A stretch of 16,656 nt of DNA from Okeania hirsuta (lineage in GTDB: Bacteria > Cyanobacteriota > Cyanobacteriia > Cyanobacteriales > Microcoleaceae). The DNA is taken from NCBI RefSeq assembly GCF_003838225.1, contig NZ_RCBZ01000114.1, one strand, 5' to 3'. Both the position numbers and the translations under genes were made by a program. Of the stretch, positions 50-15,666 are shown in pieces. The notes beneath the pieces are model-generated. The model had not been told where the DNA came from, did no database searches, and saw only the letters and a list, made by a program, of their open reading frames with translations. Each line of letters begins with the position of its first letter. The first letter of the stretch is position 1.

Positions 50-994
50 TCAGATATCTTGTCTATTTCTGGCATCTAAAAATTTTAATTGTTGATACAA
101 CATCCCAATTTTATCTAGCTGAATACCTGCTGCACCTGCCATTCGTAAAGGGTTGCCAATAATACTTTCTATTTCTAAAGGTTGTCGTCGCTCATAATCA
201 ATTTTCATGCTAGTTAAATAAGGGTTTAACTTGTAAGTATGGTCTAACATATTTTGAATATAACTATTTGGAATTTCGCACTTACAACTTTTTGCACCCT
301 CCAATACTTCTTGCATTATTTCTGTGATTAAGTTTCTAGTATTAGTATCTCCCATCATTTCATCAGTTCGAGCATCTAGAATTACTGACAAGCTGTTATA
401 AGGAATATTCCAAACTAATTTTTTCCATCTTTCTTGGAATAAATCTTCACTCAAATTAACTTGTATTCCAGCACTTTCAAAATCTTGGGAAATTTCACGC
501 ATTTTATTAGTAATACCAGCAGGTTGATAATTTGTGGTATATTTTCCGATTCTAATCAAACCATAATCTACATGGCGAATATGACCATAACCTATTTTAT
601 TAGAAGCAATATTAGATACTCCTCCAATTACTCTTTCCTCACCAACAATTTTGGCTATTTCAGGTTCTGCACCCAATCCATTTTGTAAGAGTAAGACAAC
701 GTTATTTTCTTGGCACAAAGGTGGGAGTAATTCTGGTAATAAATAGTTTTGCGTTGTTTTTAATGCTACGAGAATTACATCACATTTTGGCATTTTATTA
801 GTATTGTTATAGGCGTTAATTTGAGGGAGGGTAAAGTCGCCATTTTTGGATTCTATGATTAAGCCATTTTTGAGAACGTGCTGATAATCACTACGCAGTA
901 AAAAATGAACTTCTAATCCTGCTTTTTGTAGTTTTGCACCGTAAAAACCTCCTAGTGCGCCACTGCCAATAATCGCGTAAGTATTTTTTGACAT
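50..994 (-). CDS. panE: 2-dehydropantoate 2-reductase (ketopantoate reductase, ApbA/PanE family)
   Basis: 314 aa ORF with an ATG start at 994. The N-terminal Rossmann motif IIGSGALGGFYGAKL and the overall length and composition are typical of the KPR/ApbA family. Confidence 0.85.
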   Translation of the reverse strand: MSKNTYAIIGSGALGGFYGAKLQKAGLEVHFLLRSDYQHVLKNGLIIESKNGDFTLPQINAYNNTNKMPKCDVILVALKTTQNYLLPELLPPLCQENNVVLLLQNGLGAEPEIAKIVGEERVIGGVSNIASNKIGYGHIRHVDYGLIRIGKYTTNYQPAGITNKMREISQDFESAGIQVNLSEDLFQERWKKLVWNIPYNSLSVILDARTDEMMGDTNTRNLITEIMQEVLEGAKSCKCEIPNSYIQNMLDHTYKLNPYLTSMKIDYERRQPLEIESIIGNPLRMAGAAGIQLDKIGMLYQQLKFLDARNRQDI

Positions 995-1669
995 TTTATT
1001 GAACTTAAATTCGACTCTGTTTCTATTTTATTGTAAGCATTTCCTACGGAATGCTGCGCAAACAGCTATTAGCTGTCAGCTCTCAACAACAAGACTCTCT
1101 CATATAGGACAGTGTTTAAATTAATATAGACTTTAAGGGCAAGGGAGCTAACTTTTGCAGTAAGACAATTAATAAAGCTTTTATGGTAAACTAAAAGCAA
1201 TAGCTAATAGTTATGACTGACCGTTGAATGCTTCAATAAAAGTTTTATTTAAACTCTATTATTAAGGGCGAAGTCTTAATTTTTTTTACTTCATATACTT
1301 GCATTTTGCTGTATTAAACTCAACTCTATCATTATTTTATCTGTTCAAATTTTTCAACTTTAATTTTGCTACATGAATAGTCTTTCCATTATCCAGTTTA
1401 AAATTTTTCCTAAAGCAAATCCTCCTGCCAATGCTAAGAAAATATAATACAGTAGATTCCACTTTAATCAGATACACCCGTCGCTGGCAAGATGCCCGCA
1501 CTAGAAACATTTAATTGTTAATCTCTGTACTTCTTATGGGAGGAATCTGCTGTAATTTATATTTATAACTCCAGCTTAAGTTTCTAGAATGTTCTAAATA
1601 AAGAAAGATAGAAAAAAATAGCAGGCAAAAACAGTACTAAAACTAAAGTTATAGTGTTTATAAAAGTTA

Positions 1670-1756
1670 TAGCAGTCGAAGGAAAGGTTAGGAGAAATAA
1701 AAAACTTAAAACTCAGACAAAGGAATATTTTTCCTTCTTCCCTCTTCCTTCTGCTA
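1670..1756. mobile_element. MITE-like element, copy A (~85 bp). Imperfect terminal inverted repeats GCAGTCGAAGGAAAGG / CCTTCTTCC..CTGC, a CT-rich interior and TA on both flanks.
   Basis: The left end TA|GCAGTCGAAGG matches the reverse complement of the right end CCTTCTGC|TA. A second copy at 15743-15852 shares the blocks GCAGTCGAAGGAAAGG, CTTAAAACTCAGACAA and TTCTGCTATA. The two copies differ in an internal variable segment and in CT-tract length. Confidence 0.5.
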
Positions 1757-1781
1757 TATACCAATTCCTAAAAATAATGCT

Positions 1782-2222
1782 CTACTTATATTCATTGTTA
1801 ATTTTTGAATAACTAGGAAAACTCAATAACCATTTCCTCATTTCATCAGATAATTTTTGCCTACTTCTACTTTGAGGATGAATACAAACGTGCTTCGTAA
1901 TAGCTCTTGCCCCCCACTTATCCTCTGTTTCTTTTAAAAAGACTTGATAGGAAATTTCAAACTCATCGTCTCTCCAACTTTTAGGAATTAATTCAATAGT
2001 TAACTCATCCCCACAAAACATCGGGCGACGAAAATCAACATTAGCATGAATAATTGGAATAGCTATTTCTTGATTACTAAAAAAAACTTTCAGATTAATA
2101 CCAAATTCTACTAAAGATGCTTCATAAGCTTCATGGCACATTGCTAAAACATTAGCAAAATAAACTACTCCAGCAGCATCGGTATCTTGAAAATGAACTA
2201 TTCTTGTATAGTAAAAAGACAT
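1782..2222 (-). CDS. 1,4-dihydroxy-2-naphthoyl-CoA thioesterase (hot-dog/4HBT fold; phylloquinone pathway)
   Basis: 146 aa. The N-terminus YTRIVHFQDTDAAGVVYFANVLAMCHEAYEASL and the VDFRRPMFCGDEL motif closely match the cyanobacterial Slr0204-type DHNA-CoA hydrolase as recalled from memory. Confidence 0.85.
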   Translation of the reverse strand: MSFYYTRIVHFQDTDAAGVVYFANVLAMCHEAYEASLVEFGINLKVFFSNQEIAIPIIHANVDFRRPMFCGDELTIELIPKSWRDDEFEISYQVFLKETEDKWGARAITKHVCIHPQSRSRQKLSDEMRKWLLSFPSYSKINNEYK

Positions 2223-2270
2223 TTATAGATATAGGTTTAATAATAATACCATTTCTTCCTTCTTCCTTTT

Positions 2271-2323
2271 CTGAACAATGAACAATCACTACAATAAAAT
2301 TGAGTATTGTTCATTGAACATTC
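2271..2323. promoter_or_regulatory. Candidate operator in the thioesterase promoter region: direct TGAACA-A-TGAACA (2272-2284) plus a perfect 6-N-6 palindrome TGTTCA-T-TGAACA (2310-2322)
   Basis: Four hexamer half-sites fall within 52 bp, immediately upstream of the minus-strand start at 2222. Confidence 0.3.
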
Positions 2324-2347
2324 ATCAGGACTAATTTTGTAATTAAA

Positions 2348-2794
2348 TTAACCCTTATTTTTAATCATTATTACATCAATAATCTTAGTCGCTACTGCTT
2401 CGGAAATTTCCAAAGCATTATATAACTCATTCAAAAGTTGTTCCTCCTCTTCAGCAAGGTCTCCATCTACTAAAACCAAGTCTGTACTAACAGCAAAAAC
2501 TGTTTCCCTTAACTCCTTTGGAAGTTTAGCAACTGCAGCATCAAACAAAGGCTTAATTTCTTGATTTTTAATCATATCGAGAAGACGGTCTTGCATTTCT
2601 GTTTTACGTTCTTTTGGATAATCACTAAACAGTTGCATACGAGAGAAAATATTATTAATACCTTGAGATTCACTCTTAGTAATAACACCATCAGCAGCAA
2701 CAGCAATTAAAGCGATCGCTGCAAAAGCTTCTGCCGGTTCTAATTGAATATCAGTAGCTTGTATTGTTGTTGTTCCTTGATCGAAAAGACCCAT
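2348..2794 (-). CDS. TerB-like (tellurite-resistance TerB domain) protein
   Basis: 148 aa acidic helical protein. The stretch EAFAAIALIAVAADGVITKSESQGINNIF and the C-terminal DGDLAEEEEQLLNELYNAL resemble the TerB-fold. ATG start at 2794. Confidence 0.55.
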   Translation of the reverse strand: MGLFDQGTTTIQATDIQLEPAEAFAAIALIAVAADGVITKSESQGINNIFSRMQLFSDYPKERKTEMQDRLLDMIKNQEIKPLFDAAVAKLPKELRETVFAVSTDLVLVDGDLAEEEEQLLNELYNALEISEAVATKIIDVIMIKNKG

Positions 2795-2908
2795 TTTAGT
2801 ACCTCATTAATGATTTTTTTACCATCTCTATTTTGGAAAAATATTAGGTGTTATTAAATAAGTTTTAGATTGAATCTACAACCTAAAATTTACCACCTAC
2901 TACCTTCT

Positions 2909-4264
2909 TCAATACTTCTCAAAAACTGTTAAATTAGCTTTGAGAAAATCAATAAATTGTCGTGCCGTTCGCCCAGAGCGACCATTATATTTCGTAGCCC
3001 ATTGTAAAGCTTGATAGTCTAAATCTTCAGGATTTAGATTAATTTTTGCCTGTTTTGCCAGATGTCTAACAATTGTTAAATAAGTATCCTGGTTAGCAGG
3101 TTCAAAAGTTAAAGTTAAGCCAAAGCGATCGCTAAAAGAAAGCTTTTCTTGAACTGTATCCCAATTATGAACCTCATCACTATCTTTTGGGCGAGGGCGA
3201 TCGTTAAAAAATTCTCTAATTAAATGCCTTCTATTTGATGTAGCATAGACTACCACATTTGTTGGTCTAGCAGTTAAATTACCCTCTAAAACAACTTTAA
3301 GAGCTTTAAAAGTATCATCATCTTCTTCAAAGGAAAGGTCATCGACAAAGATAATAAATTTTTGTGGAATATCGCGTAATTTTTCTACAATTAATGGTAA
3401 ATCTTTTAGGTTTGATTTAGCCACTTCGACTAAACGAAGATTGCGTTGACTATACTCATTTAATAAGGCTTTTATTAAAGAGGATTTGCCAGAACCGCGA
3501 CTACCATAAAGTAATATATTAAGGGCTGAATATCCTGCTAGGAGAAATTCTGTATTTTTGATTAAGGCATCTTTTTGAAATTCATATCCGACCAATTCTT
3601 TTAATTCAACTGGGTCAGGGTAAGTAATAGTAAGTAGTTGACCGTTACGCCATTCAAAGGCAATTGATTCAGCAAATAAACCAGTGCCATTATGATGATA
3701 ATGAGTGGCTAAGGTCTCAATGGCATCTGCCCAATTTTCTAATTTTTTTAACTCGTCGTAGATAGCTTCTTTTTGTTGTGATTGTATTTCCCACGCAATA
3801 GGGGGATTCTCTAATTTAGCTATTGTTTTTACCCACTGACTAATTGTTTTACCACTGCACTGATAAAGATTTTGTAAAATTTGTAAATCATGTTTTGCAG
3901 CTGCAATTAAATTTGGAGATAGGCTGGTAATATTTATTTTTTGAACTTGTTGACTAAAGGGATTATCATCTTGAATAATCTGAGCAATTAGATATTCTTG
4001 CCAGGAAATATTTTGACTAGCAATATTTATAAACCAGTTACCATAAGCTTGAAGGCATTCTATAGCAACTCCATCATTTTTAGACAAAGATTCTAATAAT
4101 TGGATAAAAGCTTCACCCACTGTTTTTTTTAGAACAGACTGATATAACAATAGAGATGCTATTTGCTGTTGTAAGTTTTGAATTTTGGCTAACACTTGGG
4201 AACCTAAACAAGACATAATTAATGATATGATTGCCTTATTAAATAAAGGATCAGCACTTAGCAC
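2909..4264 (-). CDS. DUF815-family P-loop (AAA+-like) ATPase with an ~200 aa N-terminal extension
   Basis: 451 aa. Walker A is LLYGSRGSGKSSLIKAL, Walker B is IIFVDDLSF, and the C-terminal YNGRSGRTARQF motif is present. The tracked start at 4264 is GTG; an in-frame ATG (MSCLGSQ...) lies 48 nt downstream, so the true start is uncertain. Confidence 0.65.
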   Translation of the reverse strand: MLSADPLFNKAIISLIMSCLGSQVLAKIQNLQQQIASLLLYQSVLKKTVGEAFIQLLESLSKNDGVAIECLQAYGNWFINIASQNISWQEYLIAQIIQDDNPFSQQVQKINITSLSPNLIAAAKHDLQILQNLYQCSGKTISQWVKTIAKLENPPIAWEIQSQQKEAIYDELKKLENWADAIETLATHYHHNGTGLFAESIAFEWRNGQLLTITYPDPVELKELVGYEFQKDALIKNTEFLLAGYSALNILLYGSRGSGKSSLIKALLNEYSQRNLRLVEVAKSNLKDLPLIVEKLRDIPQKFIIFVDDLSFEEDDDTFKALKVVLEGNLTARPTNVVVYATSNRRHLIREFFNDRPRPKDSDEVHNWDTVQEKLSFSDRFGLTLTFEPANQDTYLTIVRHLAKQAKINLNPEDLDYQALQWATKYNGRSGRTARQFIDFLKANLTVFEKY

Positions 4265-4679
4265 TCAGCAATTAGTAGGAGCATTTTTTTTAGGTTTATA
4301 AGGGGATTTCAACTCCTACTAAACTATCTGAAACAATATTTGTTAGAGATTTTAACCCAAACTCAAAAAACTTTATAATAGCTGATAGCTTACCACTGGA
4401 TACTTACCTATTTCTTTGGCGTAATGTAAATCTATGTAATTCTATAATAAATTTTACTCTTTGTAGTTATAAACCACTATTTTTTTACATTTACTTAAGA
4501 TGCAATTTAAGATCGAGAAATATTTCAAAAAATGTTATTGAATAGTTGAAAATTTCATTTTTAATCATAGTTTAATAATTATTGAATCTTGATTAAGCAA
4601 TATTAAGTTTTGATAAATTGGCTAGCTATTGCCACAAATAAGCTGTATAAGTTAGTTTTAGTTTTAGGAGTTAATAATA

Positions 4680-5018
4680 ATGACTATAAATATCGCCATA
4701 ATAGCAGCGATCGCCTATGGTATATTAGCCATTGTTGGGGGCATTATTGGATATACGAAAGTAGGCAGCAAAATATCTTTAATATCTGGTAGTATCAGTG
4801 GTTTACTACTAATTGTTAGTGGAATTATTCAACTAATGGGCATGAATTGGGGTCTAATATTTTCTACCCTCATTACAACTATTCTAGTAATTACATTCAT
4901 TATTCGTTTAGCAAAAACTCGTAAAATGATGCCTGCGGGATTAATGATTTTAACTGGAGTTGCTGCTGTAGCAGTTATGGTTTATGAAATTACCATAAAC
5001 AATTCAGCCACAATTTAA
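4680..5018 (+). CDS. TMEM14/UPF0136-family small integral membrane protein
   Basis: 112 aa with four predicted TM helices. The GGIIGYTKVGSKISLISG and PAGLMILTG glycine-zipper motifs match the family. A good RBS (AGGAG) sits 9 nt upstream of the ATG. Confidence 0.7.
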   Translation: MTINIAIIAAIAYGILAIVGGIIGYTKVGSKISLISGSISGLLLIVSGIIQLMGMNWGLIFSTLITTILVITFIIRLAKTRKMMPAGLMILTGVAAVAVMVYEITINNSATI

Positions 5019-5280
5019 AAAGAAACGTAAGTATTTAGCCGTCAGCTTTCAGCTCCATTAGAACTAATGACTATAGCCTTTAAAGCAGAAGTTACCATTG
5101 ACAGATTTTATCTAATTAAAAATATGAATTAAAAGTTTCCCTAGTAACTTCTAAAGTCTTAAAAAATGCTTACTTCATTTATTAATCAAGATGAGAGCTG
5201 ACCACTAATCACTGTTTGTGGAGCATTCAGGCACGGAAATCCTTATACCAATTTCATAAACTTGAGCTACTTAGGTTTGG

Positions 5281-5310
5281 AGTAGTCAGTAGTCAGTAGT
5301 CAGTAGTCAG
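5281..5310. repeat. Heptanucleotide tandem repeat (AGTAGTC)x4, STRR-like
   Basis: Directly visible: agtagtcagtagtcagtagtcagtagtcag. Confidence 0.9.
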
Positions 5311-5462
5311 GAGGTAAGGTGAGTAGCCTTACTTTTTGAATTTGGTATTACAAAGAAACAAAGAATATGGAAGAGATAAAAAAGTAGAAACTTGCTCAAT
5401 AGACATATAGATATCTCCAGAAAAGAGATAACAGGTAACAGGAAGAAATAATAGAAATCATC

Positions 5463-5520
5463 AATTATTTCTCCCTACTCCCCTACTCCCCTACTCCCTG
5501 CTCCCTACTCCCTACTCCCT
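5463..5520. repeat. Hepta/octanucleotide tandem repeat (CCCTACT/CCCCTACT) x~7, STRR-like. The same unit recurs at 10901-10917 and 11062-11080.
   Basis: Directly visible: ctccctactcccctactcccctactccctgctccctactccctactccct. The reverse complement shares the AGTAG core with the 5281-5310 array, so the two arrays are imperfect inverted repeats. Confidence 0.9.
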
Positions 5521-5630
5521 AAATTGGGATTAATCAACCCATTAGCCGTACCAAAAAGATTAATTGGACTCTTACCATCAGTAATTAAAACACTCTGAAG
5601 ACCAAGCCCCTACAACAACCTCGCCTGCAT

Positions 5631-7267
5631 TTATGGGCCAGCTTGAGCGATCGCCCGAATTGTCTCAGCCCCCAAAGCCTCCACTTTTTGCTGAAACTCA
5701 GTAGCAGTAATTTCAGCCATTTGCCTTGCCTTCTCAATCTCTAAATTATTCAGTGTCTGCTGATGGGCTAACTCAGTCTCCTGACGCGCCCTCAACTGAG
5801 CCATCTCAGCCTCATGGCGAATCCGTGCTGCTTCTACTTCCTGCTGCGCCAAATTCACCGCCAACTGGCCTTGAAAAGGAGATAACATATAAGCTTGAGG
5901 TCCATTGACTAATTTTAGTTCCCCACTTTGAACATCCCGTACATATATACCTTCATTTTTGTCTAGGGGAATAGCCTGAAGTTTTTCTAATACTTCTAAT
6001 TCCACTGGGGGAATATAATCTCTTGGCCCAGTAATCATCCATAAATCTCCTGGTTGCCGAGTAATAACGTTTGCTCCTGTTCCCTCGGTGAAAGTTTCCT
6101 CAACTCTGATTAGGAGTGCTTCTTGTTCACCAAGAATATAGACCTTTTTAATTCCTGTTTCTAAATCTTCTCCTGGGTGCAAAAAGAAAGATGTTCTGCC
6201 CTGACGCACTTCTTTCATACCCCACTGCGGTTTACCATCTGCATCTATGGGATTAGTTACTATGCACCATTCGCGATCGCTTAAAGTAGTGATTTTGACT
6301 TCTCCCACTACTTCTTCATAAACGTCGGGAATATGAATTTCAGCATCTGCAAAAGTAACTAACTATTCATATCCCGCTTTGCGTTGCTGACCAAAAATAT
6401 CAGTAAAAGTCCGTTTTGCTTTTAGATGTAGTGCTTGACGTTCGGTTAATACATAGGCATCAATAGTATCGACAATTTCTTCATCTACTCCAGGCAAATA
6501 AGCACCTTCTTCCCTGACCAACCATTATTCCCCAGTTCTACGTCTGTTACCTTGACGATCTATACAATTTTGTCGTGCCAGCAGTCGTAAGGCTTGGTTA
6601 GGTTTAATTATTTTAGCTATAACTGTGACTACCACTTCAACTTCTACCCTGGGAGTGTAAGTTCCTGGCCCCTCAAATAACCATTCATCCCCTGTCGTAC
6701 GAGTGACAGTTTGAGACTCTCCTGCAACGATAACTGTATCAGTAAAATCTCGTATTGCTTTGAGACGTAGAGTTTGGTTTGTGTCAATTACTTGTAGTTG
6801 AGTTACATCTTCTTCGAGTATTTCTCCTGGATATAGTGGGAAAGGGTCTTGAGCAAAGCGAATTTCCAGATCGCCATATTTGAGTCTAATTTAACCATAC
6901 TCATCGGCCACAAGTTGATCTGAACTATAGCAATGTGCGCTGGCATATTTACACATTATTTTTTGTACACCTTTTCTAAAATGCACTTTGAACTGGGCCT
7001 TGTAAATACCTGAGCGCTCATTGCTATATTTCTTAGTACAGGGTTAGCTGCTACACAATAATGGCGAGGTGGAACTACAATTGTCAGTTGTGGTTGTCAG
7101 ACTAACCTTTCTGCATCTCCAAGGGTAATGGTTTGAGGGCCTATTTCTAGTCTGATAACACCAGTGTTATTGTCAAGAACATGAATATACTGTTGTGGCT
7201 TCAGGAGAATTATACCATTGTTCTCTATTGTAATTGGATATTCTGTGGTACTTTTTATTTTACTCAT
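5631..7267 (-). pseudogene. Major vault protein (MVP)-like gene, decayed: four in-frame stops, one frame-breaking insertion, an internal deletion and a C-terminal truncation
   Basis: My manual minus-strand translation from the ATG at 7267 gives MSKIKSTTEYPITIENNGIILLKPQQYIHVLDNNTGVIRLEIGPQTITLGDAERLV*QPQLTIVVPPRHYCVAANPV... After the insertion it continues ...[88 protein letters not shown]...RRTGE*WLVREEGAYLPGVDEEIVDTIDAYVLTERQALHLKAKRTFTDIFGQQRKAGYE*LVTFADAEIHIPDVYEEVV and runs in frame into the tracked ORF 5631-6308 (...AIPLDKNEGIYVRDVQSGELKLVNGPQAYML...). These stretches align colinearly with human MVP repeats 1-7 as recalled from memory ([27 protein letters not shown]; [17 protein letters not shown]; [21 protein letters not shown]; TGEEWLV; AIPLDENEGIYVQDV) and with the extreme cap-helix end (IGPSTIRDLAVAGPE vs LGAETIRAIAQAGP). 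The stops are TGA at 7099-7097, TAA at 6893-6891, TAA at 6527-6525 and TAG at 6365-6363. Confidence 0.8.
6928..7026. mobile_element. MITE-like ~95 bp insertion inside the MVP-like pseudogene, with terminal inverted repeats GCAATGTGCGCTGG / CTGAGCGCTCATTGC and TA flanks
   Basis: The MVP frame is frame 0 upstream and shifts by 2 downstream. The intervening ~95 bp (length ≡2 mod 3) has no MVP counterpart and is bounded by 15/17-matching inverted repeats. Its ends (TATAGCAATG) resemble those of the 1670/15743 element (TATAGCAGTCG). Confidence 0.55.
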
Positions 7268-7330
7268 AGTTTAATAGTTTTGTAACTAGAAATCTTAAGT
7301 TATTCATTATCCATTATTAATTATCTCTTA

Positions 7331-9709
7331 CTATCGTCGCCAAATTTTAATAGTTCTGTCTTTACTACCACTAGCAATACTATTACCATCAGGACTAAAA
7401 GTAACTGTATAAATCTCATCTTTATGCCCGGTCAAAGTACTAACTAATTCTCCTGTTTCTAAATCCCATATCTTAATATTATTATCCTTACTGCCACTAG
7501 CAATATATCGACCATCTTCGCTAATATCAACAGATACAACTTCAGCAGTATGACCAAGAATAGTTTTGATTAATTCTCCTGTTTTTAAGCTCCAAATTTT
7601 AATAGTATTATCGTAACTCCCACTCACTATTTTTTCCCCATCTGGACTAATATCAACAGACCTAATTACTCCTTCATGTCCAGTCAATGTATTAATTAAT
7701 TCTCCAGTATATAAATCTTCAATTTTTATAGTTTGATCTGCACTACCACTAACCAATATTCTGCCGTCAGGACTAATAGCAATAGAATAAACTACATCTG
7801 AGTGATCGGGGAAATTAAAAATTAAGAAACCTGTTTCTAAATCCCAAACTTTAACTGTTTTATCTCCACTAGCACTAGCAATTGTTTGATTATCAGAACT
7901 CATAGCAACTGACCAAACAGGTGCCCAATGTTCAAATACTCGAAATAATTCTCCTGTTTCCAAATTCCAGATCATTACTCTCCAATCATAAGTACCTACC
8001 ACTAATTTAGTACCATTATTATTCAAAGCAACTGACCAAATTGGAGAATCATCTGCAGCTAATGTGTTGATAATTTTTCCTGTAGGAACTTCTAAAATTT
8101 TTACTGTTGTATCTCTACTTCCAGTAACTAAATTTTCGCCATTATCACTAAATGCAAGAGCGCCTATAGAAGCATTAAACCTAGACAAATCTTCAACTTG
8201 ATAATTCTGCCAATTTAGACCTTGTTGACAATTTTGTAAAAGAGATTGAGCTTCAGCAAAAATGCTAGATTTTTCACTAATTAAAGTTCCTTGATTGATA
8301 CATTCTTCATAGTTGCGCTCTATGTATAAGTTTTTTACAAAATTAAATTTTGCCGATTCTTGTTCTTGCTGTTGTAATACTTGTTGTTGACGTAATTGTA
8401 AATAATTTTGGAATTTAAGATATCTATATATAGCAAAGATTATTACAATTAAGGTAGCGATAAATCCTAAAATCAACTGCCAGTTAAAAGATGATTGTTT
8501 GTTATTATTGCTAAATATTTTTTTAAATTTAGTAAGTAGAGATTTTGGTAAAACTCTGTTTTCTATTAATTCTATATCTTCTTGAGTTAGTCCTAAAATT
8601 TGCTGTAGACGCTCTAACTCCTGGCGAGTTTCTTGACTAAAAGGATATTCTTCCTGAATCGCAGCTTTTAATGTTTCTTCATATCTTTCTCCTTTCATCC
8701 GATATTTACGGTAAGGATTTAATACTTCATCCTCAATTATTTCCGTTTCTTCCCGGGAGAGTTCTAAACTTTCTCTAAGTTCATCTAAAATTCTTCTCCC
8801 GACAATAGAAATATCTCCTCTATCGCTAGCTCGACGAATAACCTCTTCCCGATAAATTTCTTTATTATCTGTAGCGAAACTTGGAAACTCATTAATTTTT
8901 TTTAAATCTGCTATAACTTCTGCTGCTGACTGGTAACGTTCGTGAAAGTTATAGCGCACCATTTTATCTAAAATATCTGCTAGAGAAGTAGAACAATTTG
9001 TTAGGTATCGCCAAAAAATCTCTTTTTTTTCACCATTTTCATTATCCTTTAGTTTCGATAATTCGCTGCTAGGCAATCCCGTAATTGCCTGAATGCCAAT
9101 CATTCCTAAAGCATAAATATCACTATTTAATTGGGGATTATATTCAAATTGTTCAATTGGCATATATTCCATTGTGCCAATCCTAGCTGTAGGATTTTGC
9201 TGACCAATATTAATTTCTTTAACAGCTCCAAAATCAATTAATACTAATTGATTATCCGATTTTCTTCTAATTAAATTAGCAGGCTTAATATCTCGATGAA
9301 TAACACTATTTTCATGCACAAATACTAAAATTTCTAATACTTCATTGATAATTAAAATTACTTGTTTTTCAGATAGGGGTTTACCAGGTAATATTTCATT
9401 GTCTAAAGATTGACCAGGAATAAAAGATTGAACTAGAAAAAACTCTCGATCTTCTTCAAAATATGCAAGTAGTTTAGGAATTCGATCATGTTGAGAAAGC
9501 TTTTCTAGCATCTGTGCTTCTTTTTGAAATCGATCGCGAACGATATTAATTAATCTTCGATCATAAATACTTGGTTGTAGATGCTTAATAAAACATTGTG
9601 CTTCTCCAGGACGACGAATGTCTAAGGCCAGATAAGCATGGCCAATTTCCCCTGATTCAATAATTTTAATAATTTGATAGCGTCCATCTAAAATATTACC
9701 AATCATCAT
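7331..9709 (-). CDS. Serine/threonine protein kinase with a central helical/coiled region, one TM helix and a C-terminal seven-blade WD40 domain
   Basis: 792 aa. Kinase motifs are HRDIKPANL, IDFGAVKE and GTMEYMPIEQ. The TM segment is LILGFIATLIVIIFAIYRYL. Seven WD40 repeats follow (…GHxxxVxSVxISPDG…SGSxDxTIKIW). ATG-ATG start at 9709. Confidence 0.9.
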   Translation of the reverse strand: MMIGNILDGRYQIIKIIESGEIGHAYLALDIRRPGEAQCFIKHLQPSIYDRRLINIVRDRFQKEAQMLEKLSQHDRIPKLLAYFEEDREFFLVQSFIPGQSLDNEILPGKPLSEKQVILIINEVLEILVFVHENSVIHRDIKPANLIRRKSDNQLVLIDFGAVKEINIGQQNPTARIGTMEYMPIEQFEYNPQLNSDIYALGMIGIQAITGLPSSELSKLKDNENGEKKEIFWRYLTNCSTSLADILDKMVRYNFHERYQSAAEVIADLKKINEFPSFATDNKEIYREEVIRRASDRGDISIVGRRILDELRESLELSREETEIIEDEVLNPYRKYRMKGERYEETLKAAIQEEYPFSQETRQELERLQQILGLTQEDIELIENRVLPKSLLTKFKKIFSNNNKQSSFNWQLILGFIATLIVIIFAIYRYLKFQNYLQLRQQQVLQQQEQESAKFNFVKNLYIERNYEECINQGTLISEKSSIFAEAQSLLQNCQQGLNWQNYQVEDLSRFNASIGALAFSDNGENLVTGSRDTTVKILEVPTGKIINTLAADDSPIWSVALNNNGTKLVVGTYDWRVMIWNLETGELFRVFEHWAPVWSVAMSSDNQTIASASGDKTVKVWDLETGFLIFNFPDHSDVVYSIAISPDGRILVSGSADQTIKIEDLYTGELINTLTGHEGVIRSVDISPDGEKIVSGSYDNTIKIWSLKTGELIKTILGHTAEVVSVDISEDGRYIASGSKDNNIKIWDLETGELVSTLTGHKDEIYTVTFSPDGNSIASGSKDRTIKIWRR

Positions 9710-10021
9710 TATTGTGGTAGAGCCTTTTTTAGTTGATTATGGCATGAAACAATTTACTCATTTTGACATCTACAATTATAAAAAAAATAGTTTTAATTAA
9801 GAATATTTTCCTGATTCCAAAACTGAAAATTAGAAGTTTAATTGTAACCCTTAATCATTAATTGATAGAGATATGTTACTCCAGAACACAAATTAATTCT
9901 GATAAAAAGTGTAATATAGAAACCAAAATAATAATTTTGGCCACTCAAAACAAAAGCACAATTTTAACAGTGCTATCATAGACAGAAGCAAAGCTAAAAT
10001 CAGGTATAGGGAGTTAAGTGG

Positions 10022-10471
10022 ATGAGCCATGAAATAATAGCAATTAGGAGACCTGTTAGACCAAAACAGCCTATTGAGCCAAATTCTCCAAAGGAGGCGC
10101 TTCACGAACAAATTGAGTCAAAAGTAGAAAAACCAAATTCAATAAAAAATAGCCCCTCATCAAGAACAGAAGGTACGAATGAAAGGCAATTAGGAAAACC
10201 AATAAGTAAATCAGAAAGACCCAAAAAACCAGGAAAACCAAAGCTAAAAGAATCTATCCAACAAGTCACCAATGCTAACGGAAAAGTTTTTAGTTCGGGG
10301 GATAAGATTTTAGTATCAGCACCCTGGAGTAGTATTGTAGAAGCTGAAATTACGGGTTTTTATAAAAGTCCTGGAGGTTCAATCTGGGCAATTTTTCTTC
10401 CCCAAGAATCTCTACCTAAGTGGAAGTGGGAAAAAGGTTGCATCCGAGCTGAATTATTAAAACAAGCATAA
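10022..10471 (+). CDS. Hypothetical protein: Lys/Pro-rich low-complexity N-terminal half and a small Trp-containing C-terminal domain
   Basis: 149 aa ORF with ATG at 10022 and AGGGAG 13 nt upstream. No recognisable family. The antisense 72 aa ORF is hydrophobic junk. Confidence 0.45.
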   Translation: MSHEIIAIRRPVRPKQPIEPNSPKEALHEQIESKVEKPNSIKNSPSSRTEGTNERQLGKPISKSERPKKPGKPKLKESIQQVTNANGKVFSSGDKILVSAPWSSIVEAEITGFYKSPGGSIWAIFLPQESLPKWKWEKGCIRAELLKQA

Positions 10472-10600
10472 TTAAGGCAAAAAAAATCTTAAATTCAGGA
10501 TAATTTAGCATCTAAAAAAAATCCTAAAAAATATAACAGGATGATTTGGGTTGTGTAGAAAATATCCTGAATCAAATTAAGAGGAAACAGGGAAAAAATA
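10470..10600. promoter_or_regulatory. Repeated motif TATCCTGAAT: one inverted copy (aaattcaggataattt, ~10485) and two direct copies (~10563 and ~10601), plus an ATCCT..N14..AGGAT dyad at ~10519-10543
   Basis: Directly visible repeats in an intergenic A-rich region just 3' of the hypothetical gene. Confidence 0.3.
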
Positions 10601-10916
10601 TCCTGAATAAAGGGAGGGGGGAGAGGATATATTTTAAACTTTTCTCCTGTTCCATAAATATTTAATCAAACTTGATATAACTGATACTAAATCTGATTTA
10701 GATAGGTTACTTGTTAAGGTAGTAAATATTTATCCAAATGGTTAAATTCAAACAAATCAATTTCTTAAAGTGCTGAAAGTGTTAGTTTTTCAGGAGTTAA
10801 TTCTTGAGCAAATTGGAAAACAAAATTTTCTTGCTGTTTAGTTTCTATTGTGTATTGAAGAGTTTCTCTGACCTTAGCGATCGCCTCACTATCAGTTCCG
10901 GTGCTCCCTACTCCCT

Positions 10917-11062
10917 CTCTTGGTGAGCGTTCCTTGCCTTGGTCGATTGGATATGGCGTTAGCGCAACGGATCTGCCAGAGCGGGTTTCCTCGCCATTTC
11001 ACCCTACGGGAAGCTCCAAAGATCGACCGCTTGCGTCTGTCGCACCCCGCGGGGTCGCACCG
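10917..11062. other. GC-rich, palindrome-dense ~145 bp segment bracketed by direct copies of the STRR-like unit (C)TGCTCCCTACTCCCT. Candidate structured RNA or mobile-element remnant.
   Basis: It stands out against the AT-rich background. Long-range complementarity exists between GGTCGATTGG (10941-10950) and CCAAAGATCGACC (11017-11029). A perfect 12-nt palindrome ACCCCGCGGGGT lies at 11044-11055. GCGTTAGCGCAAC has near-palindromic relatives at 11213-11232 and 11292-11304. The flanking direct repeats are 10899-10917 and 11056-11080. Confidence 0.3.
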
Positions 11063-11430
11063 CTGCTCCCTACTCCCTAAATTTTTGATTGTGGTTATTC
11101 AAACAGACATGATATAATAGTAAAAATCCTTAAAAAAAATTTAGAGACGCGATCGCCCACATCTCTAAAATTACTATTCGACTATTTCAGCCAGAATTGA
11201 TATCCTCTCGACGTTGCGCTTAGGCGACAACGTGGGATTCCTAACCATCACTGATTAGGTTTTTCTGTTCCCTCTTGCCTCCTCCGGAGGAGCTGCGCTA
11301 ACAGAGGATCTGCCTCCGAGGTCTTTCCCTCTTTTTGGTCTTAAGGTCGCTCCACAGTACGTCACCAATCCGATGGCTCCCCTAGACACTGCTAGCCCAG
11401 CAGCCTCAATTTAAGTATTATAGCACATGG

Positions 11431-11462
11431 TTTGAAAAAAAAACCAATCAATATTGGTTTTC
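11431..11462 (-). terminator. Possible weak, bidirectional intrinsic terminator 3' of the helicase gene
   Basis: A9 run, then the hairpin AACCAAT-caat-ATTGGTT, then a T4 run. On the minus strand the hairpin is followed by a U9 run. The stem is AT-rich with only 2 GC pairs. Confidence 0.35.
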
Positions 11463-11523
11463 CCATAGGATTATCCCGCACTCTCCTGAGGGCGGGTCTT
11501 CAACCAACGTTGAAATAAGTAAC

Positions 11524-13008
11524 TTAATTATTGCGTGACACAGAAGCCTCTTCTACAAAATTGTCACCATCTCTCCTCTGATTTTTAGGAGAAGGTTTTT
11601 GATGACGAATCTTCGGTGAGCGTGGCTTTGGCTTTGGCTTCGGAGTTTCATAGACAGGGATTTCTTCCTCCTGAGCATAATCAGGCCCCATCCAAGCAGG
11701 ACGAGTTTCATCATAAGCTATCTGTAAAGCTGCTGCAGCGATCGCATGGGGGTCATACTCTTCACCCAACTGAGCAATCAATGGTAAGAAAGAAGCCATT
11801 CGTTCCCCACTCAGAGCATCTCGTACCTTATTCTGTAACTTCTGCAACTGTCGGGCTTCAATTTGAGACCGCTTAGGAATCGAGCGAGTATCCAAACGTT
11901 GACGTAGATGACGTTCTATCAACCGTAACTTCCGCTTATCTAAAGGATTAATTAACGAAATCGCTGTACCTTCACGACCTGCACGACCTGTACGACCAAT
12001 ACGGTGAACATAATTTTCCACACTATCAGGTAAATCGTAGTTAATCACATGAGTTAAGTGGTCCACATCTAAACCACGAGCTGCAATATCAGTTGCCACT
12101 ACCCAACGTACTTGTTGATTACGAAAGCGACTTAGCAACCGTTCTCGTTGGGATTGATTCAAGTTACCATGATATTCATCAACACTATGACCTGCTGACT
12201 GTAATTGGTTTGTTAGTTCAGCCGCTGCTTGCCTTGTCCGCACAAATATCAAAGCTGCTTCTGGGTCTTCGAGTTCTAGAACTGGCTGTAAGGCTTTAGC
12301 TTTCGGCCAACCACGAGGCACCATGTAAGCAATCTGAGAAATTCGCTTCGGAGTTGTCTTTTGTTGAGCAACTTTGACTGTTACTGGCGATCGCAAATAT
12401 TTATTCACCAGTTTCTTGATTGAGTAGTCCATGGTAGCAGAGAAGAAAGCTGTTTGATGTTCAGTGGGTGCTGCATCCAAAATTCTTTCTACATCCTGAA
12501 TAAAACCCATACTCAACATTTCGTCAGCTTCGTCTAAAACCATCATTTTCAAACTATCTAGTTTTAAACTATTGCGACTCAGCATATCCAGAATCCGTCC
12601 TGGCGTTCCAACTACGATATGAACACCTCTTTGAAGGCGCTGAATCTGACGTTCAATAGATTGACCGCCATAAACAGTTAAGACCTGTAATCGATGTTTC
12701 GTTGGACTCTTGTTATCCAAACCAGCAATTTGACGAATCGCTTCTGTAACTTGCAGCGCTAACTCACGAGTGGGAGTCAAAATCAAAGCTTGAACTGCCT
12801 TTGTCTCCAGCTCAATTCTCTCCAATATGGGTAACGAAAACGCTGCGGTTTTACCTGTTCCTGTTTGGGCTTGACCTACAATATCGGTTCCTGCCAGCAA
12901 ATGAGGTATTGCTTGGACTTGAATCGGAGTAGGTTCAGTAAAACCAATTGTTTCCAGATGATTTACACGCTCTTGTGAAATTCCTAAATTTGCAAACGAT
13001 AAATCCAT
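11524..13008 (-). CDS. DEAD-box ATP-dependent RNA helicase (CrhR/CrhC-like) with a basic Pro/Lys-rich C-terminal tail
   Basis: 494 aa. Q-motif (FTEPTPIQ), motif I AQTGTGKT, Ia PTRELA, II VLDEADEML, III SAT (FSATM) and VI HRIGRTGRAG. A strong RBS (TAGGAG) precedes the ATG at 13008. Confidence 0.9.
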   Translation of the reverse strand: MDLSFANLGISQERVNHLETIGFTEPTPIQVQAIPHLLAGTDIVGQAQTGTGKTAAFSLPILERIELETKAVQALILTPTRELALQVTEAIRQIAGLDNKSPTKHRLQVLTVYGGQSIERQIQRLQRGVHIVVGTPGRILDMLSRNSLKLDSLKMMVLDEADEMLSMGFIQDVERILDAAPTEHQTAFFSATMDYSIKKLVNKYLRSPVTVKVAQQKTTPKRISQIAYMVPRGWPKAKALQPVLELEDPEAALIFVRTRQAAAELTNQLQSAGHSVDEYHGNLNQSQRERLLSRFRNQQVRWVVATDIAARGLDVDHLTHVINYDLPDSVENYVHRIGRTGRAGREGTAISLINPLDKRKLRLIERHLRQRLDTRSIPKRSQIEARQLQKLQNKVRDALSGERMASFLPLIAQLGEEYDPHAIAAAALQIAYDETRPAWMGPDYAQEEEIPVYETPKPKPKPRSPKIRHQKPSPKNQRRDGDNFVEEASVSRNN

Positions 13009-13500
13009 TCATTCTCCTAAGTAAATTATTTTACATCTGGTTTTGTTACCCAACTTGGAGGCAGATTTATGCTCAACTATAGCTGCTTATCAGCCCTTGC
13101 TCACGATAAACCTGTAGTTATTTGGTAGGGCAGTATGCCTTTGCCAATCACAGTTTCTACTAAATCTACTAAACTGATAGCTAACATTTTAGTAGTGTCT
13201 GTATGTTCTCAACGGCTAGGTTTTAACCTGAAGATCGACGACAGAATTAAAGGCAAAATGCCTGTTCCTTTTCTCTCTAGTTGGGTATAGTGAAGTACCT
13301 GCTCTATAAAACTGATACAAAGCGTCACATAAAGTGACAAATTGACGTTTACTTCTTGCTTCAACTGAGGCCGTCGGCGGTTACTCATCCACAAGCATTT
13401 ACGGTCGAGCCGACCGCATATCTCAAATTTATACTGGCGTTTAAATCTCCTCAAAAGGAGAATCAGCGCAGCCACCCTGCTTCTCAAGGCGGATAAATTC
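13009..13500 (-). promoter_or_regulatory. Putative long 5' leader/promoter region of the DEAD-box helicase gene, with several stable hairpins
   Basis: Local GC-rich hairpins on the minus strand include GTCACTTTATGTGAC (~13320-13334), GGTCGGCTCGACC (~13404-13416) and CTCCTTTTGAGGAG (~13449-13462). The only ORF here (92 aa) is Arg-rich and implausible. Confidence 0.3.
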
Positions 13501-14334
13501 TGATTTTTTTTGTAGAGGCTTTCCGATTTTACAGGCAGACAAACATGAACATTATTAAGTTATGTAGTTTGTCTGATTACCTGAACTACCGCTAGTAGAT
13601 ATAATAGAAAATTTATATTGTTTCTACGACCTTTTAAGTAAGTCAGGTAGGTTATCAACCACTACAATATAAAGATATAGAAATTACTACTGTCTCACAC
13701 ATATCAATCTCAGGAATTTTAAGCCCCTGCGATTAAGTTTCCTTTCGTCTCACTCCTAAACCTACGGCCATAGAGAGGAATTTCCTAGAGGGTCTGTTGA
13801 GAAAGGTTAGAGCCAATATTTGGCTATCGTTAAGCTGTTGTATATATCAAGTTTCCGTTGGACAAAGGAAGAAAAAATGACCTTAATTTTGAGGTTTTCC
13901 ATGTCCCAGCGTATCTACCTACATTACCGTAGGTATTTTATGATACTTAACAGCTCCCTTTGGGTAGCTCGTCTTTATCTTCATAATGATTAACATAATA
14001 ACAAATGACTTAACATTTGCCACATTTATTACATATTTTCCTGGAATTAACTTAATTTTTTAGATTTTGTACATTGATGTAGAGGTTTTGGGACATTACA
14101 CACTTTTTACAGAAGTTACTTAAAAGTGATACAGGCGTTACATGTAAAGTCTGTAAAGCAATCAAAGTTAAGAAGAATTTCTGATGTATATATTGTAATG
14201 TGTTAAGATTTTAAGTTGCGCAAGAAGCCCAGTATAGTTTATATCTTCATAAGTATCATTTAGTTGCAAGACTTTATGTGTCTAATGATGCTTTGGCAAT
14301 CCCTAAAAATGTACCCTACACTTCAACTGAATGA

Positions 14335-15666
14335 CTAATTGCTTGATTTACTCAAATCTACATAACCATACAAATCGTAAACATCTGCATCTGTAATCAT
14401 CACTGGCACAATTGAACCCAAACGAGCTTTACCTTGGAGATAAACAAGTCCATCCACTTCTGGAGAAAACCGTGGTGACCTACCAATCAACTCTCCTGTC
14501 TGAGGATTTTCCTGTTCAATCAGTACATCAACTACTTGTCCCACTGATTTTTGATTCTGTTTTCCAGATATGGGCTGCTGGACTTGCATAATTTTTTCTC
14601 TACGGGTGTCCATCACTGCTTTGGGCAACTGATTAGGCAAACTATAGGCGGGGGTTCCTTCTTCTGGAGAGAAAGTAAATACCCCAACATGATCGAACTC
14701 GTGACGCTTGACAAATTTCACTAAATGTGCATGATGATCTTCCGTTTCACCAGGGAAGCCCACTATAAAGGTTGTCCGCAACACGGCATTGGGCATAGCT
14801 GCTTTTATTTTTTCGATTATATCATCATTAACCCGACCTTGCCAAGGTCTATTCATGGCCCGCAATATTTGGGGATGAGAATGTTGTAAAGGCAAGTCTA
14901 GATAGGGTAAAATATTGGGAGTTTCTTGAATAGCAGCTATTACTTTGGGAGTCAAACCTGTAGGATAGGCATAGTGCATTCTAATCCAGGGTATATCAAC
15001 TTTTCCTAGGGCGCGGAGAAGTTCGGCGAGTTTGGGTTCGCCATAAATATCGATTCCATAGTTAGTGGTTATTTGGGAGATGAGGATGATTTCTTTTACC
15101 CCTTGGTCTGCTAGTTGTTGAGCTTCAGTGACAATAGATTCTATGGTGCGCGATCGCTGATTTCCTCGTAGATGAGGAATAATACAAAAAGCACAACGAT
15201 AATCACAACCTTCAGCTATTCGCACATAAGCAACTCCTTCGGATGTGGTGCGGTAACGTGGGGTTGTTTCATCGGCAATATAGGTGGGTTGAGGGGAGAC
15301 TTCTGTGACGCGATCGCCTTTTTCTACCCGTTGCATCACATCAACTATTTTATGATAATCACCAGTCCCCACAAGTGCTACTGCTTCTGGTAACTCTGCA
15401 AGTAATTCTTCTTGGAAGTGTTGCGCCATACAACCTGCGATGACTATTTTTTTGTTAGCTTCTGCTAATTCTACCAAAGTACGAACAGATTCTTCTCTGG
15501 CAGTTTGAATAAAACTACAGGTGTTAACGACTACATAATCTGCTAATTCTTCGTTAGCATCTACTTGATAACCCGCTTGTGCTAGTAAACCTATGATATG
15601 TTCGGTATCGATACGATTTTTTTCGCACCCTAAGTGAGAGAATGAAATGGTAGGTTTTGTAGACAT
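14335..15666 (-). CDS. rimO: Ribosomal protein S12 methylthiotransferase RimO (radical-SAM MTTase with TRAM domain)
   Basis: 443 aa. The N-terminal MTTase domain (FSHLGCEKN…NTCSF) is followed by the radical-SAM CDYRCAFC motif and a C-terminal TRAM domain. ATG at 15666. Confidence 0.9.

Follow-up and report, generated by a model that had tools for sequence, protein, structure and literature searches.

The major vault protein (MVP) gene on the minus strand of positions 5505-7267 of the window, the whole 16,656-nucleotide stretch of Okeania hirsuta DNA analysed here, is very probably a unitary pseudogene. Alignments with related genomes indicate that it is the orthologous remnant, now non-functional, of a cyanobacterial MVP gene in O. 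hirsuta-type Okeania. By these alignments the ancestral gene lay between a kinase-WD40 gene and a Tmemb_14 gene, and its product of ~870 aa comprised nine Vault repeats together with shoulder, cap-helix and cap-ring. Intact orthologues, which distinguish a unitary pseudogene, occupy that syntenic position in Okeania sp. SIO3I5 (L001; 926 aa) and in L157/L158 (865 aa). An uninterrupted reading frame for a protein of ~860-930 aa is absent from the window, where six stops, a frameshift of +101 bp and the loss of 316 codons are found. A reading made earlier from the letters of this DNA (the sequence-only reading) had proposed a decayed, non-functional MVP homologue between the Tmemb_14 and Ser/Thr-kinase-WD40 genes of a cyanobacterial chromosome, and our comparisons agree with it: the intact orthologue that it proposed to look for between the TMEM14-like gene and the WD40 kinase exists in L001 and L157/L158, and the gene at this place is MVP rather than an unrelated one.

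The order of events that we favour is given by which lesions are shared with Okeania sp. SIO2G4, a strain 99.2% identical to the window. The common ancestor of the two would already have carried an in-frame 948-bp deletion and four nonsense substitutions, and the window lineage would then have gained two nonsense substitutions and a 99-bp, TA-targeting, frame-shifting miniature inverted-repeat transposable element (MITE). Even a read-through product could presumably not assemble, if the cap-helix and shoulder drive lateral shell assembly as they do in the eukaryotic protein.

Homology and extent of the remnant

Translation of the minus strand of 5400-7330 yields an MVP-like protein spread over two frames, one running from the ATG at 7267 to ~7030 and the other from 6926 to the TAG at 5507-5505. 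The N-terminal segment lies in a different frame from the remainder because of the MITE insertion. The main parts are as follows.

5505..7267, minus strand: complete extent of the MVP pseudogene, with the ancestral ATG at 7267-7265 and the ancestral stop TAG at 5507-5505
7029..7267, minus strand: N-terminal segment, up to codon ~79, with repeat 1 and the beginning of repeat 2
5527..5875, minus strand: retained C-terminal part, cap-helix (equivalent of rat 735-802) and cap-ring (rat 803-850), from the phmmer alignment to rat MVP

The remnant is colinear with the intact gene of SIO3I5 (L001:10001-12781, 926 aa, protein P0002) at 84-94% nucleotide identity, and this orthologue, together with other relatives, served as the reference for calling lesions. 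For Pfam and PDB searches we joined the pieces into a conceptual protein of 552 aa. The phmmer search against PDB sequences returned rat MVP (7pkz, E=2.1e-158), with query residues 17-429 aligned to rat 5-410 (53% identity over 405 positions) and 430-545 aligned to rat 735-850 (46% over 116 positions); the C-terminal segment scored 83.3 bits (E=1.3e-22). Pfam Vault matched in four stretches (201.9 bits, cut-off 27), as did Vault_2 (116.2 bits, cut-off 23.6) and, over profile positions 1-30 of 63 only, Vault_4 (33.7 bits, above its cut-off), and the conceptual protein had no match to MVP_shoulder (PF11978; rat 520-646) or Vault_3. Judged by these scores, the match to MVP is far above chance. 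The sequence-only reading had described a colinear minus-strand homology over 7267..5631, quoted motifs from its translation and anticipated Vault-repeat profile matches; the colinearity is borne out by the rat MVP and Vault scores, every quoted motif is found, and three Vault families exceed their cut-offs with the shoulder unmatched.

In rat MVP the repeats span residues 1-519, the shoulder 520-646 and the cap-helix 647-802, followed by the cap-ring (PMC3595041). On this scale Vault repeat domains 1-7 are detectable in the remnant by sequence profile, repeats 8-9 are not complete (Vault_4 partial, Vault_3 without a match), and the cap-helix is kept only in its last 68 residues (corresponding to rat 735-802). 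The intact P0002 has Vault_4 at 453-512, Vault_3 at 536-596 and MVP_shoulder at 597-714 (180.9 bits). The cap-ring is retained, rat 803-850 aligning to 5670-5527, although two stops interrupt this stretch, and the C-terminal part as a whole is 94-97% identical in nucleotides to L001 (SIO3I5), L041 and L044 (SIO2F4). The regions that had been listed as missing were correctly given for most of repeat 8, repeat 9 and the shoulder, but not for the cap-ring, and the deletion also takes in 88 cap-helix residues. Nor does the gene end at 5631, as had been supposed: the TAA there is a nonsense mutation of a codon that is GAA in relatives, and homology continues for another 126 bp to 5507-5505.

Tandem arrays of heptanucleotides, similar in appearance to cyanobacterial repeats of the short tandemly repeated repetitive (STRR) type, lie on either side of the pseudogene: (CTCCCTA)x7 at 5471-5521, which overlaps the final codons of the remnant, (AGTAGTC)x4.3 at 5281-5310 and (TTATCCA)x3.7 at 7300-7325.

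Nonsense codons and deletion

Six in-frame nonsense codons occur in 5505-7267, each a single base away from the sense codon of relatives. The four reported before are those inside 7267..5631; the count rises to six over the full remnant.

7097..7099, minus strand: nonsense TGA at codon 57; TTA in all relatives including SIO2G4
6891..6893, minus strand: nonsense TAA; CAA in relatives; shared with SIO2G4
6525..6527, minus strand: nonsense TAA in the TGE-E-WLV motif; GAA or AAA in relatives; shared with SIO2G4
6363..6365, minus strand: nonsense TAG; TGG in relatives; shared with SIO2G4
5631..5633, minus strand: nonsense TAA; GAA in all relatives including SIO2G4
5610..5612, minus strand: nonsense TAG; GAG in relatives; shared with SIO2G4
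5875..5876, minus strand (5876 followed by 5875): junction of the in-frame 948-bp deletion, from the alignment to L001; shared with SIO2G4

Because SIO2G4 has sense codons at 7099-7097 and 5633-5631, the stops at these two places are recent. The deletion, whose junction is ambiguous by at most 1-2 bases (T/TT), removes positions 1457-2404 of the L001 coding sequence (CDS; codons 486-802), equivalent to rat MVP 411-734. In terms of domains the loss takes in the greater part of repeat 8, repeat 9 and the shoulder in full, and 88 residues at the start of the cap-helix (rat 647-734); in P0002 the same codons encode the second half of Vault_4, Vault_3, MVP_shoulder and the start of the coiled coil. 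These lesions are not sequencing errors, since the lesion-bearing remnant is identical in two independent assemblies (L153, L154) and two further assemblies (L155, L156) carry the 948-bp deletion and four of the six stops.

The absence from the window of a 165-bp stretch of SIO3I5 (CDS 1006-1170) is not a further deletion, as the 865-aa orthologue also lacks it; the stretch arose by partial duplication specific to the lineages of SIO3I5, L152 and SIO2F4. This 55-codon insert in the repeat region (L001:11006-11170; L042 ~1215-1300) starts as a partial tandem duplication, QWGTKEVRQGRTSFF / QSGTKEVRQGKTSFF.

The MITE insertion

The frame-breaking insertion that the sequence-only reading had noted is confirmed, with a net gain of 101 bp.

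6926..7028: MITE including the TA duplication (TA at 6926-6927 and 7027-7028); the element itself is 6928-7026, 99 bp

The element is non-coding, and its net +101 bp shifts the frame. It ends in imperfect terminal inverted repeats of ~28 nt, TAGCAATG...CATTGCTA, with inverted arms of 32 nt that are 81% complementary, and the empty site with a single TA is found in L001 (SIO3I5), L041, L042 (SIO2F4) and SIO2G4. The same terminal inverted repeat pattern occurs in 106 metagenome contigs. From these, 36 full-length copies of ~103-104 bp (range 99-114) show 85-97% identity, lie at unrelated flanks and nearly all end TATAGCAATG...CATTGCTATA. No second copy was found in the window or in 45 genome loci with MVP, copies being found only in metagenomes; the unnamed family (~99 bp, TA duplication) has more than 100 copies in marine metagenome contigs of the JAAUX*/JAAUY* series and Ga0316189 (L046-L151).

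The family has been active recently, since the site is occupied in the window and empty in 99.2%-identical SIO2G4. The proper comparison is, we assume, with the TA-targeting bacterial MITEs of the IS630/Tc1-mariner type. The window element resembles TA-targeting bacterial MITEs in its ~99-bp length, lack of coding capacity, terminal inverted repeats, TA duplication and many dispersed copies, and its insertion is polymorphic between 99.2%-identical genomes. No autonomous parent element or transposase was identified for it, although no search for a parent insertion sequence was made.

The same locus in relatives

The locus is intact, independently wrecked or empty among relatives, on which ground MVP is dispensable and repeatedly lost in the Okeania-Dapis-Trichodesmium clade. 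Its anchors in the window and its states in related genomes are listed below.

4680..5018, plus strand: Tmemb_14 gene, synteny anchor
7331..9709, minus strand: Ser/Thr protein kinase-WD40 gene, synteny anchor
Okeania sp. SIO3I5 (L001): intact, 926 aa, between kinase-WD40 and Tmemb_14
L157/L158 (ATPase labelled Trichodesmium sp. MO_231.B1 by NCBI): intact, 865 aa, same synteny
GCA_029976225.1 (L152): intact, 924 aa; different surroundings upstream, without the WD40 kinase gene
Okeania sp. SIO2G4, 99.2% identical to the window: early decay, 948-bp deletion and stops at 6893, 6527, 6365 and 5612
Window: later decay, all SIO2G4 lesions plus two stops and the MITE
Dapis M229: independent wreck, start ATG changed to ATC, 1442-bp frameshifting deletion (codons 220-701) and 4-bp insertion
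Okeania SIO2F4: independent wreck, TAA at codon 9, 1-bp deletion, and a reverse-transcriptase and TnpB-like element replacing CDS ~1066-1918
Okeania SIO2C9: relic, ~90 C-terminal codons only, frames broken
Tara Oceans contigs whose ATPase clusters with proteins named Trichodesmium: absent, kinase-WD40 adjoins Tmemb_14

SIO2G4 has no MITE (empty site), TTA at 7099-7097 and GAA at 5633-5631, and so the gene is still decaying. The Trichodesmium-type Tara Oceans contigs show no trace of MVP at the locus even at E=10. A first tblastn summary had suggested that SIO2F4 (L044) and Dapis share the deletion of the window; alignments ruled this out, as L044 keeps the shoulder/cap-helix region and the Dapis deletion is a different one (1442 bp).

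Taken together, these states form a clean series of gene death at one locus, from intact, through a deletion with four stops, to two more stops and a MITE, with a ~90-codon relic and complete absence elsewhere in the clade. Closely related natural strains with and without MVP could be used to test the function of bacterial vault proteins.

The element in the SIO2F4 gene (L042:1257-2557, L044:1-64) encodes an RVT_1 reverse transcriptase and a TnpB/Cas12f-like TNB domain, and contigs L042 and L044 overlap at its end. The ketopantoate reductase (ApbA/PanE) gene, intact in the window (50-994, 314 aa), is split by gene calling into pieces of 95 and 159 aa in the MVP-intact contigs (L157:14599-15570, L158:12151-13122). 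Different lineages have different genes in decay.

Timing and substitution pattern

Nei-Gojobori estimates for the window against SIO3I5 gave a nonsynonymous divergence (dN) of 0.062, a synonymous divergence (dS) of 0.38 and a dN/dS of 0.16, compared with 0.19 between two intact copies and 0.22-0.38 for flanking genes. Because the ratio of 0.16 is close to that of intact against intact, most of the divergence is older than the inactivation. By these estimates inactivation is recent relative to species divergence, yet older than the 0.8% split from SIO2G4. The changes polarised since that split are 7 missense, 1 synonymous and 2 nonsense; these numbers are small, but the changes look unconstrained and fit neutrality. 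Among these ten substitutions, five are G:C>T:A transversions, an odd spectrum for neutral sites.

Over the whole lineage of the window, the lineage-specific changes comprise 6 nonsense, ~34 missense and ~35 synonymous substitutions. Given that 4.6-7% of random changes make stops, the probability of such an excess of nonsense changes is P ~0.003 if the assumptions are realistic and rises to ~0.2 if they are as generous as possible. We take the excess as suggestive only, because the locus was picked for its stops.

Alternative explanations

Several points weigh against the reading as a unitary pseudogene. A three-taxon estimate of dN/dS on the window branch (0.14-0.22) is not raised and alone would also suit a gene that is still constrained; the six nonsense changes exceed the ~1-2 expected from simple neutral decay; public gene calls cut the remnant into four small ORFs (open reading frames; 56, 36, 52 and 225 aa), the last three with Vault Pfam matches; and the genome may hold a second intact MVP paralogue elsewhere. 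The low dN/dS of the remnant and the public gene calls would fit a gene that is split or truncated and still working, e.g. through the 225-aa ORF at 5631-6308 (repeats 5-7 and a piece of coiled coil). We regard this as very improbable, as recent inactivation accounts for the low dN/dS of the remnant, and the split from SIO2G4 has been followed by 7 missense changes to 1 synonymous and by two new stops. The limits of the ORF are set by random nonsense mutations and differ between the sister strains (225 vs 232 aa), the domains required for assembly are deleted, and relatives wreck the gene in quite different ways. The four fragments that public assemblies treat as separate small 'genes' are an annotation problem. 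A source in eukaryotic contamination, or in a very recent eukaryotic transfer into the assembly, would fit the 53% identity to rat MVP, which is unusually high for a bacterial-eukaryotic pair, but it is refuted by synteny, which is conserved in cyanobacteria, with flanks 82-91% identical in other genomes; in addition, the locus is present in at least four independent assemblies, the nearest proteins are cyanobacterial (70-78% identity), and the remnant carries a cyanobacterial MITE as well as highly iterated palindrome (HIP1) sites common to orthologues.

5647..5654: HIP1 site GCGATCGC, conserved in L001 (SIO3I5), L041 and L044 (SIO2F4)
6273..6280: HIP1 site GCGATCGC, present in L042 (SIO2F4); L001 (SIO3I5) has GCGATCGG

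The window has lost another ancestral HIP1 site, the third, near 6873. The sequence-only reading had counted two HIP1 sites, rightly, but placed them at 5646 and 6282 instead of the starts given here. Its conclusion of long residence rather than contamination holds because of the intact MVP in the exact syntenic position of relatives, beside which the HIP1 sites are weak evidence.

Selection for the loss itself is a less remote alternative, although we still consider it unlikely. Inactivation of MVP might have been favoured in the Okeania-Dapis-Trichodesmium clade, e.g. because the particle is costly or exploited by phage, and null lesions might then outpace neutral decay, perhaps via recombination among null alleles with restored alleles being purged. 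Such selection could account for at least four independent inactivations or losses at a single syntenic locus, but a dispensable gene would be lost in parallel just as readily in a clade known to be rich in non-coding DNA (PMC4143802), and intact copies remain in three relatives. The number of stops, roughly three to five times that predicted from the missense load while the missense/synonymous ratio is still that of a constrained gene, also points this way, as does the gain of two stops and a MITE within ~0.4% divergence. The excess is nevertheless post hoc in a locus flagged for its stops, its P rises to ~0.2 if all missense changes are neutral and the spectrum is rich in G:C>T:A, and further stops bring no benefit once a first null mutation is present. 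If loss were selected, bacterial vault-like particles would bear a conditional cost, such as phage exploitation or the burden of assembly, and the strains of this clade would provide natural knock-out/wild-type pairs for finding what these particles do. The interest of the pseudogene lies in a well-resolved repeated loss, together with a weak hint of a fast build-up of null mutations.

MVP homologues in bacteria

MVP is no oddity in this setting: it is widespread in filamentous cyanobacteria, and the window holds a dead copy. Each of the best 120 database matches is a full-length protein (860-932 aa) in which none of the five MVP Pfam domains is missing, and nearly all of the named ones among them are from filamentous cyanobacteria, usually under the label 'colicin uptake protein', the name that the Prokaryotic Genome Annotation Pipeline (PGAP) gives to cyanobacterial MVP homologues. 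A homologue is present in 45 species-level genomes, mostly of Oscillatoriales-type filaments. The view that bacterial homologues are rare therefore does not survive these counts, nor the literature, in which they have appeared since 2013: Daly et al. 2013 (PMC3762200) described cyanobacterial homologues that carry the 'colicin uptake protein' annotation, and such homologues also feature in Sokolskyi 2019 (bioRxiv 10.1101/872010) and a 2023 preprint. The direction of MVP transfer between eukaryotes and cyanobacteria is disputed in these sources (PMC3762200; bioRxiv 10.1101/872010; 2023 preprint). The MVP literature that we searched does not mention pseudogenes and contains no experimental report of bacterial vault particles.

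The closest proteins to the remnant are cyanobacterial (70-78% identity), and its direct orthologue is P0002 of SIO3I5, at the identical syntenic position. Over the retained parts, amino-acid identity to cyanobacterial MVP homologues is 68-78%. Members such as those of Moorena producens 3L (Lyngbya majuscula; F4Y3B4), Oscillatoria acuminata (K9TKX8) and Allocoleopsis franciscana PCC 7113 (K9WB38) belong to the same family and have the same domain order. The described cyanobacterial members are intact, with 860-930 aa and five MVP Pfam domains, whereas the window copy has six stops, a MITE and a 316-codon deletion. Full-length homologues at 64-66% identity also occur beyond cyanobacteria, in Candidatus Parabeggiatoa, a Thiomargarita metagenome-assembled genome (MAG) and an Anaerolineae MAG (L036, L037, L039), suggesting that MVP genes have passed between cyanobacteria and other filamentous bacteria of large size.

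Compared with eukaryotic MVP (rat/human; PDB 4V60, 4HL8, 7PKZ), the remnant is colinear in the repeat 1-8 region and in the cap-helix/cap-ring (53% and 46% identity) but lacks the shoulder and half of the cap-helix. Unlike in eukaryotic vaults, no TEP1, vPARP or vault RNA partner is encoded near the window MVP, and no conserved partner gene (TEP1-, vPARP- or WD40-like) was found around MVP in the 45 loci. No neighbouring family occurs in more than 10 of the 45, the commonest being a response regulator, and the kinase-WD40 neighbour is conserved only inside the Okeania-Dapis-Trichodesmium clade. Neither a vault particle nor a TEP1, vPARP or vault RNA partner is known. Vault assembly is dominated by cap-helix interactions (literature summarised in PMC3595041). 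By analogy with eukaryotic MVP, whose vault shell consists of 39-mer halves, an intact bacterial member of the family would be a self-assembling shell protein.

Host genome and surrounding sequence

The host is Okeania (Oscillatoriales, Microcoleaceae), an order and family to which Dapis likewise belongs, so the synteny comparison with Nostocales relatives that had been envisaged is not applicable. Window positions 2255-14216 are 100% identical to Okeania assembly GCA_010672745.1, and the ATPase encoded nearby is 100% identical to an NCBI 'MULTISPECIES: Okeania' protein that UniRef assigns to O. hirsuta. Colinearity with Okeania sp. SIO3I5 and Dapis sp. BLCC-M229 extends over positions 1312-10888 (78-95% nucleotide identity), the order common to the three being thioesterase, TerB, DUF815 ATPase, Tmemb_14, MVP, kinase-WD40 and a 149-aa ORF. 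The window as a whole had no Rfam match.

Between its TerB and thioesterase genes (2255/2256) the window is without ~727 bp of non-coding DNA that the near-identical assemblies L153, L154 and L155 all have, which is either a strain-specific deletion or an assembly difference. Its ORF-poor stretches of 0.8-1.3 kb (994-1782, 10471-11524 and 13008-14335) hold several short sequences that are found again in unrelated contigs. These repeat-bearing stretches are in line with the low coding density reported for the clade: Trichodesmium erythraeum IMS101 is ~60% coding (Pfreundt et al. 2014, PMC4143802), and the window, from the same clade, likewise has ORF-free stretches filled by dispersed repeats. 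That paper treats Trichodesmium genome-wide, and the MVP locus is not mentioned in the literature searched. One short dispersed repeat, at 13299-13419, is 91% identical to L138:216-336 and also matches L087; it lies inside 13289-13942, a stretch absent from the otherwise colinear metagenome contig L120, and is probably another small mobile element.

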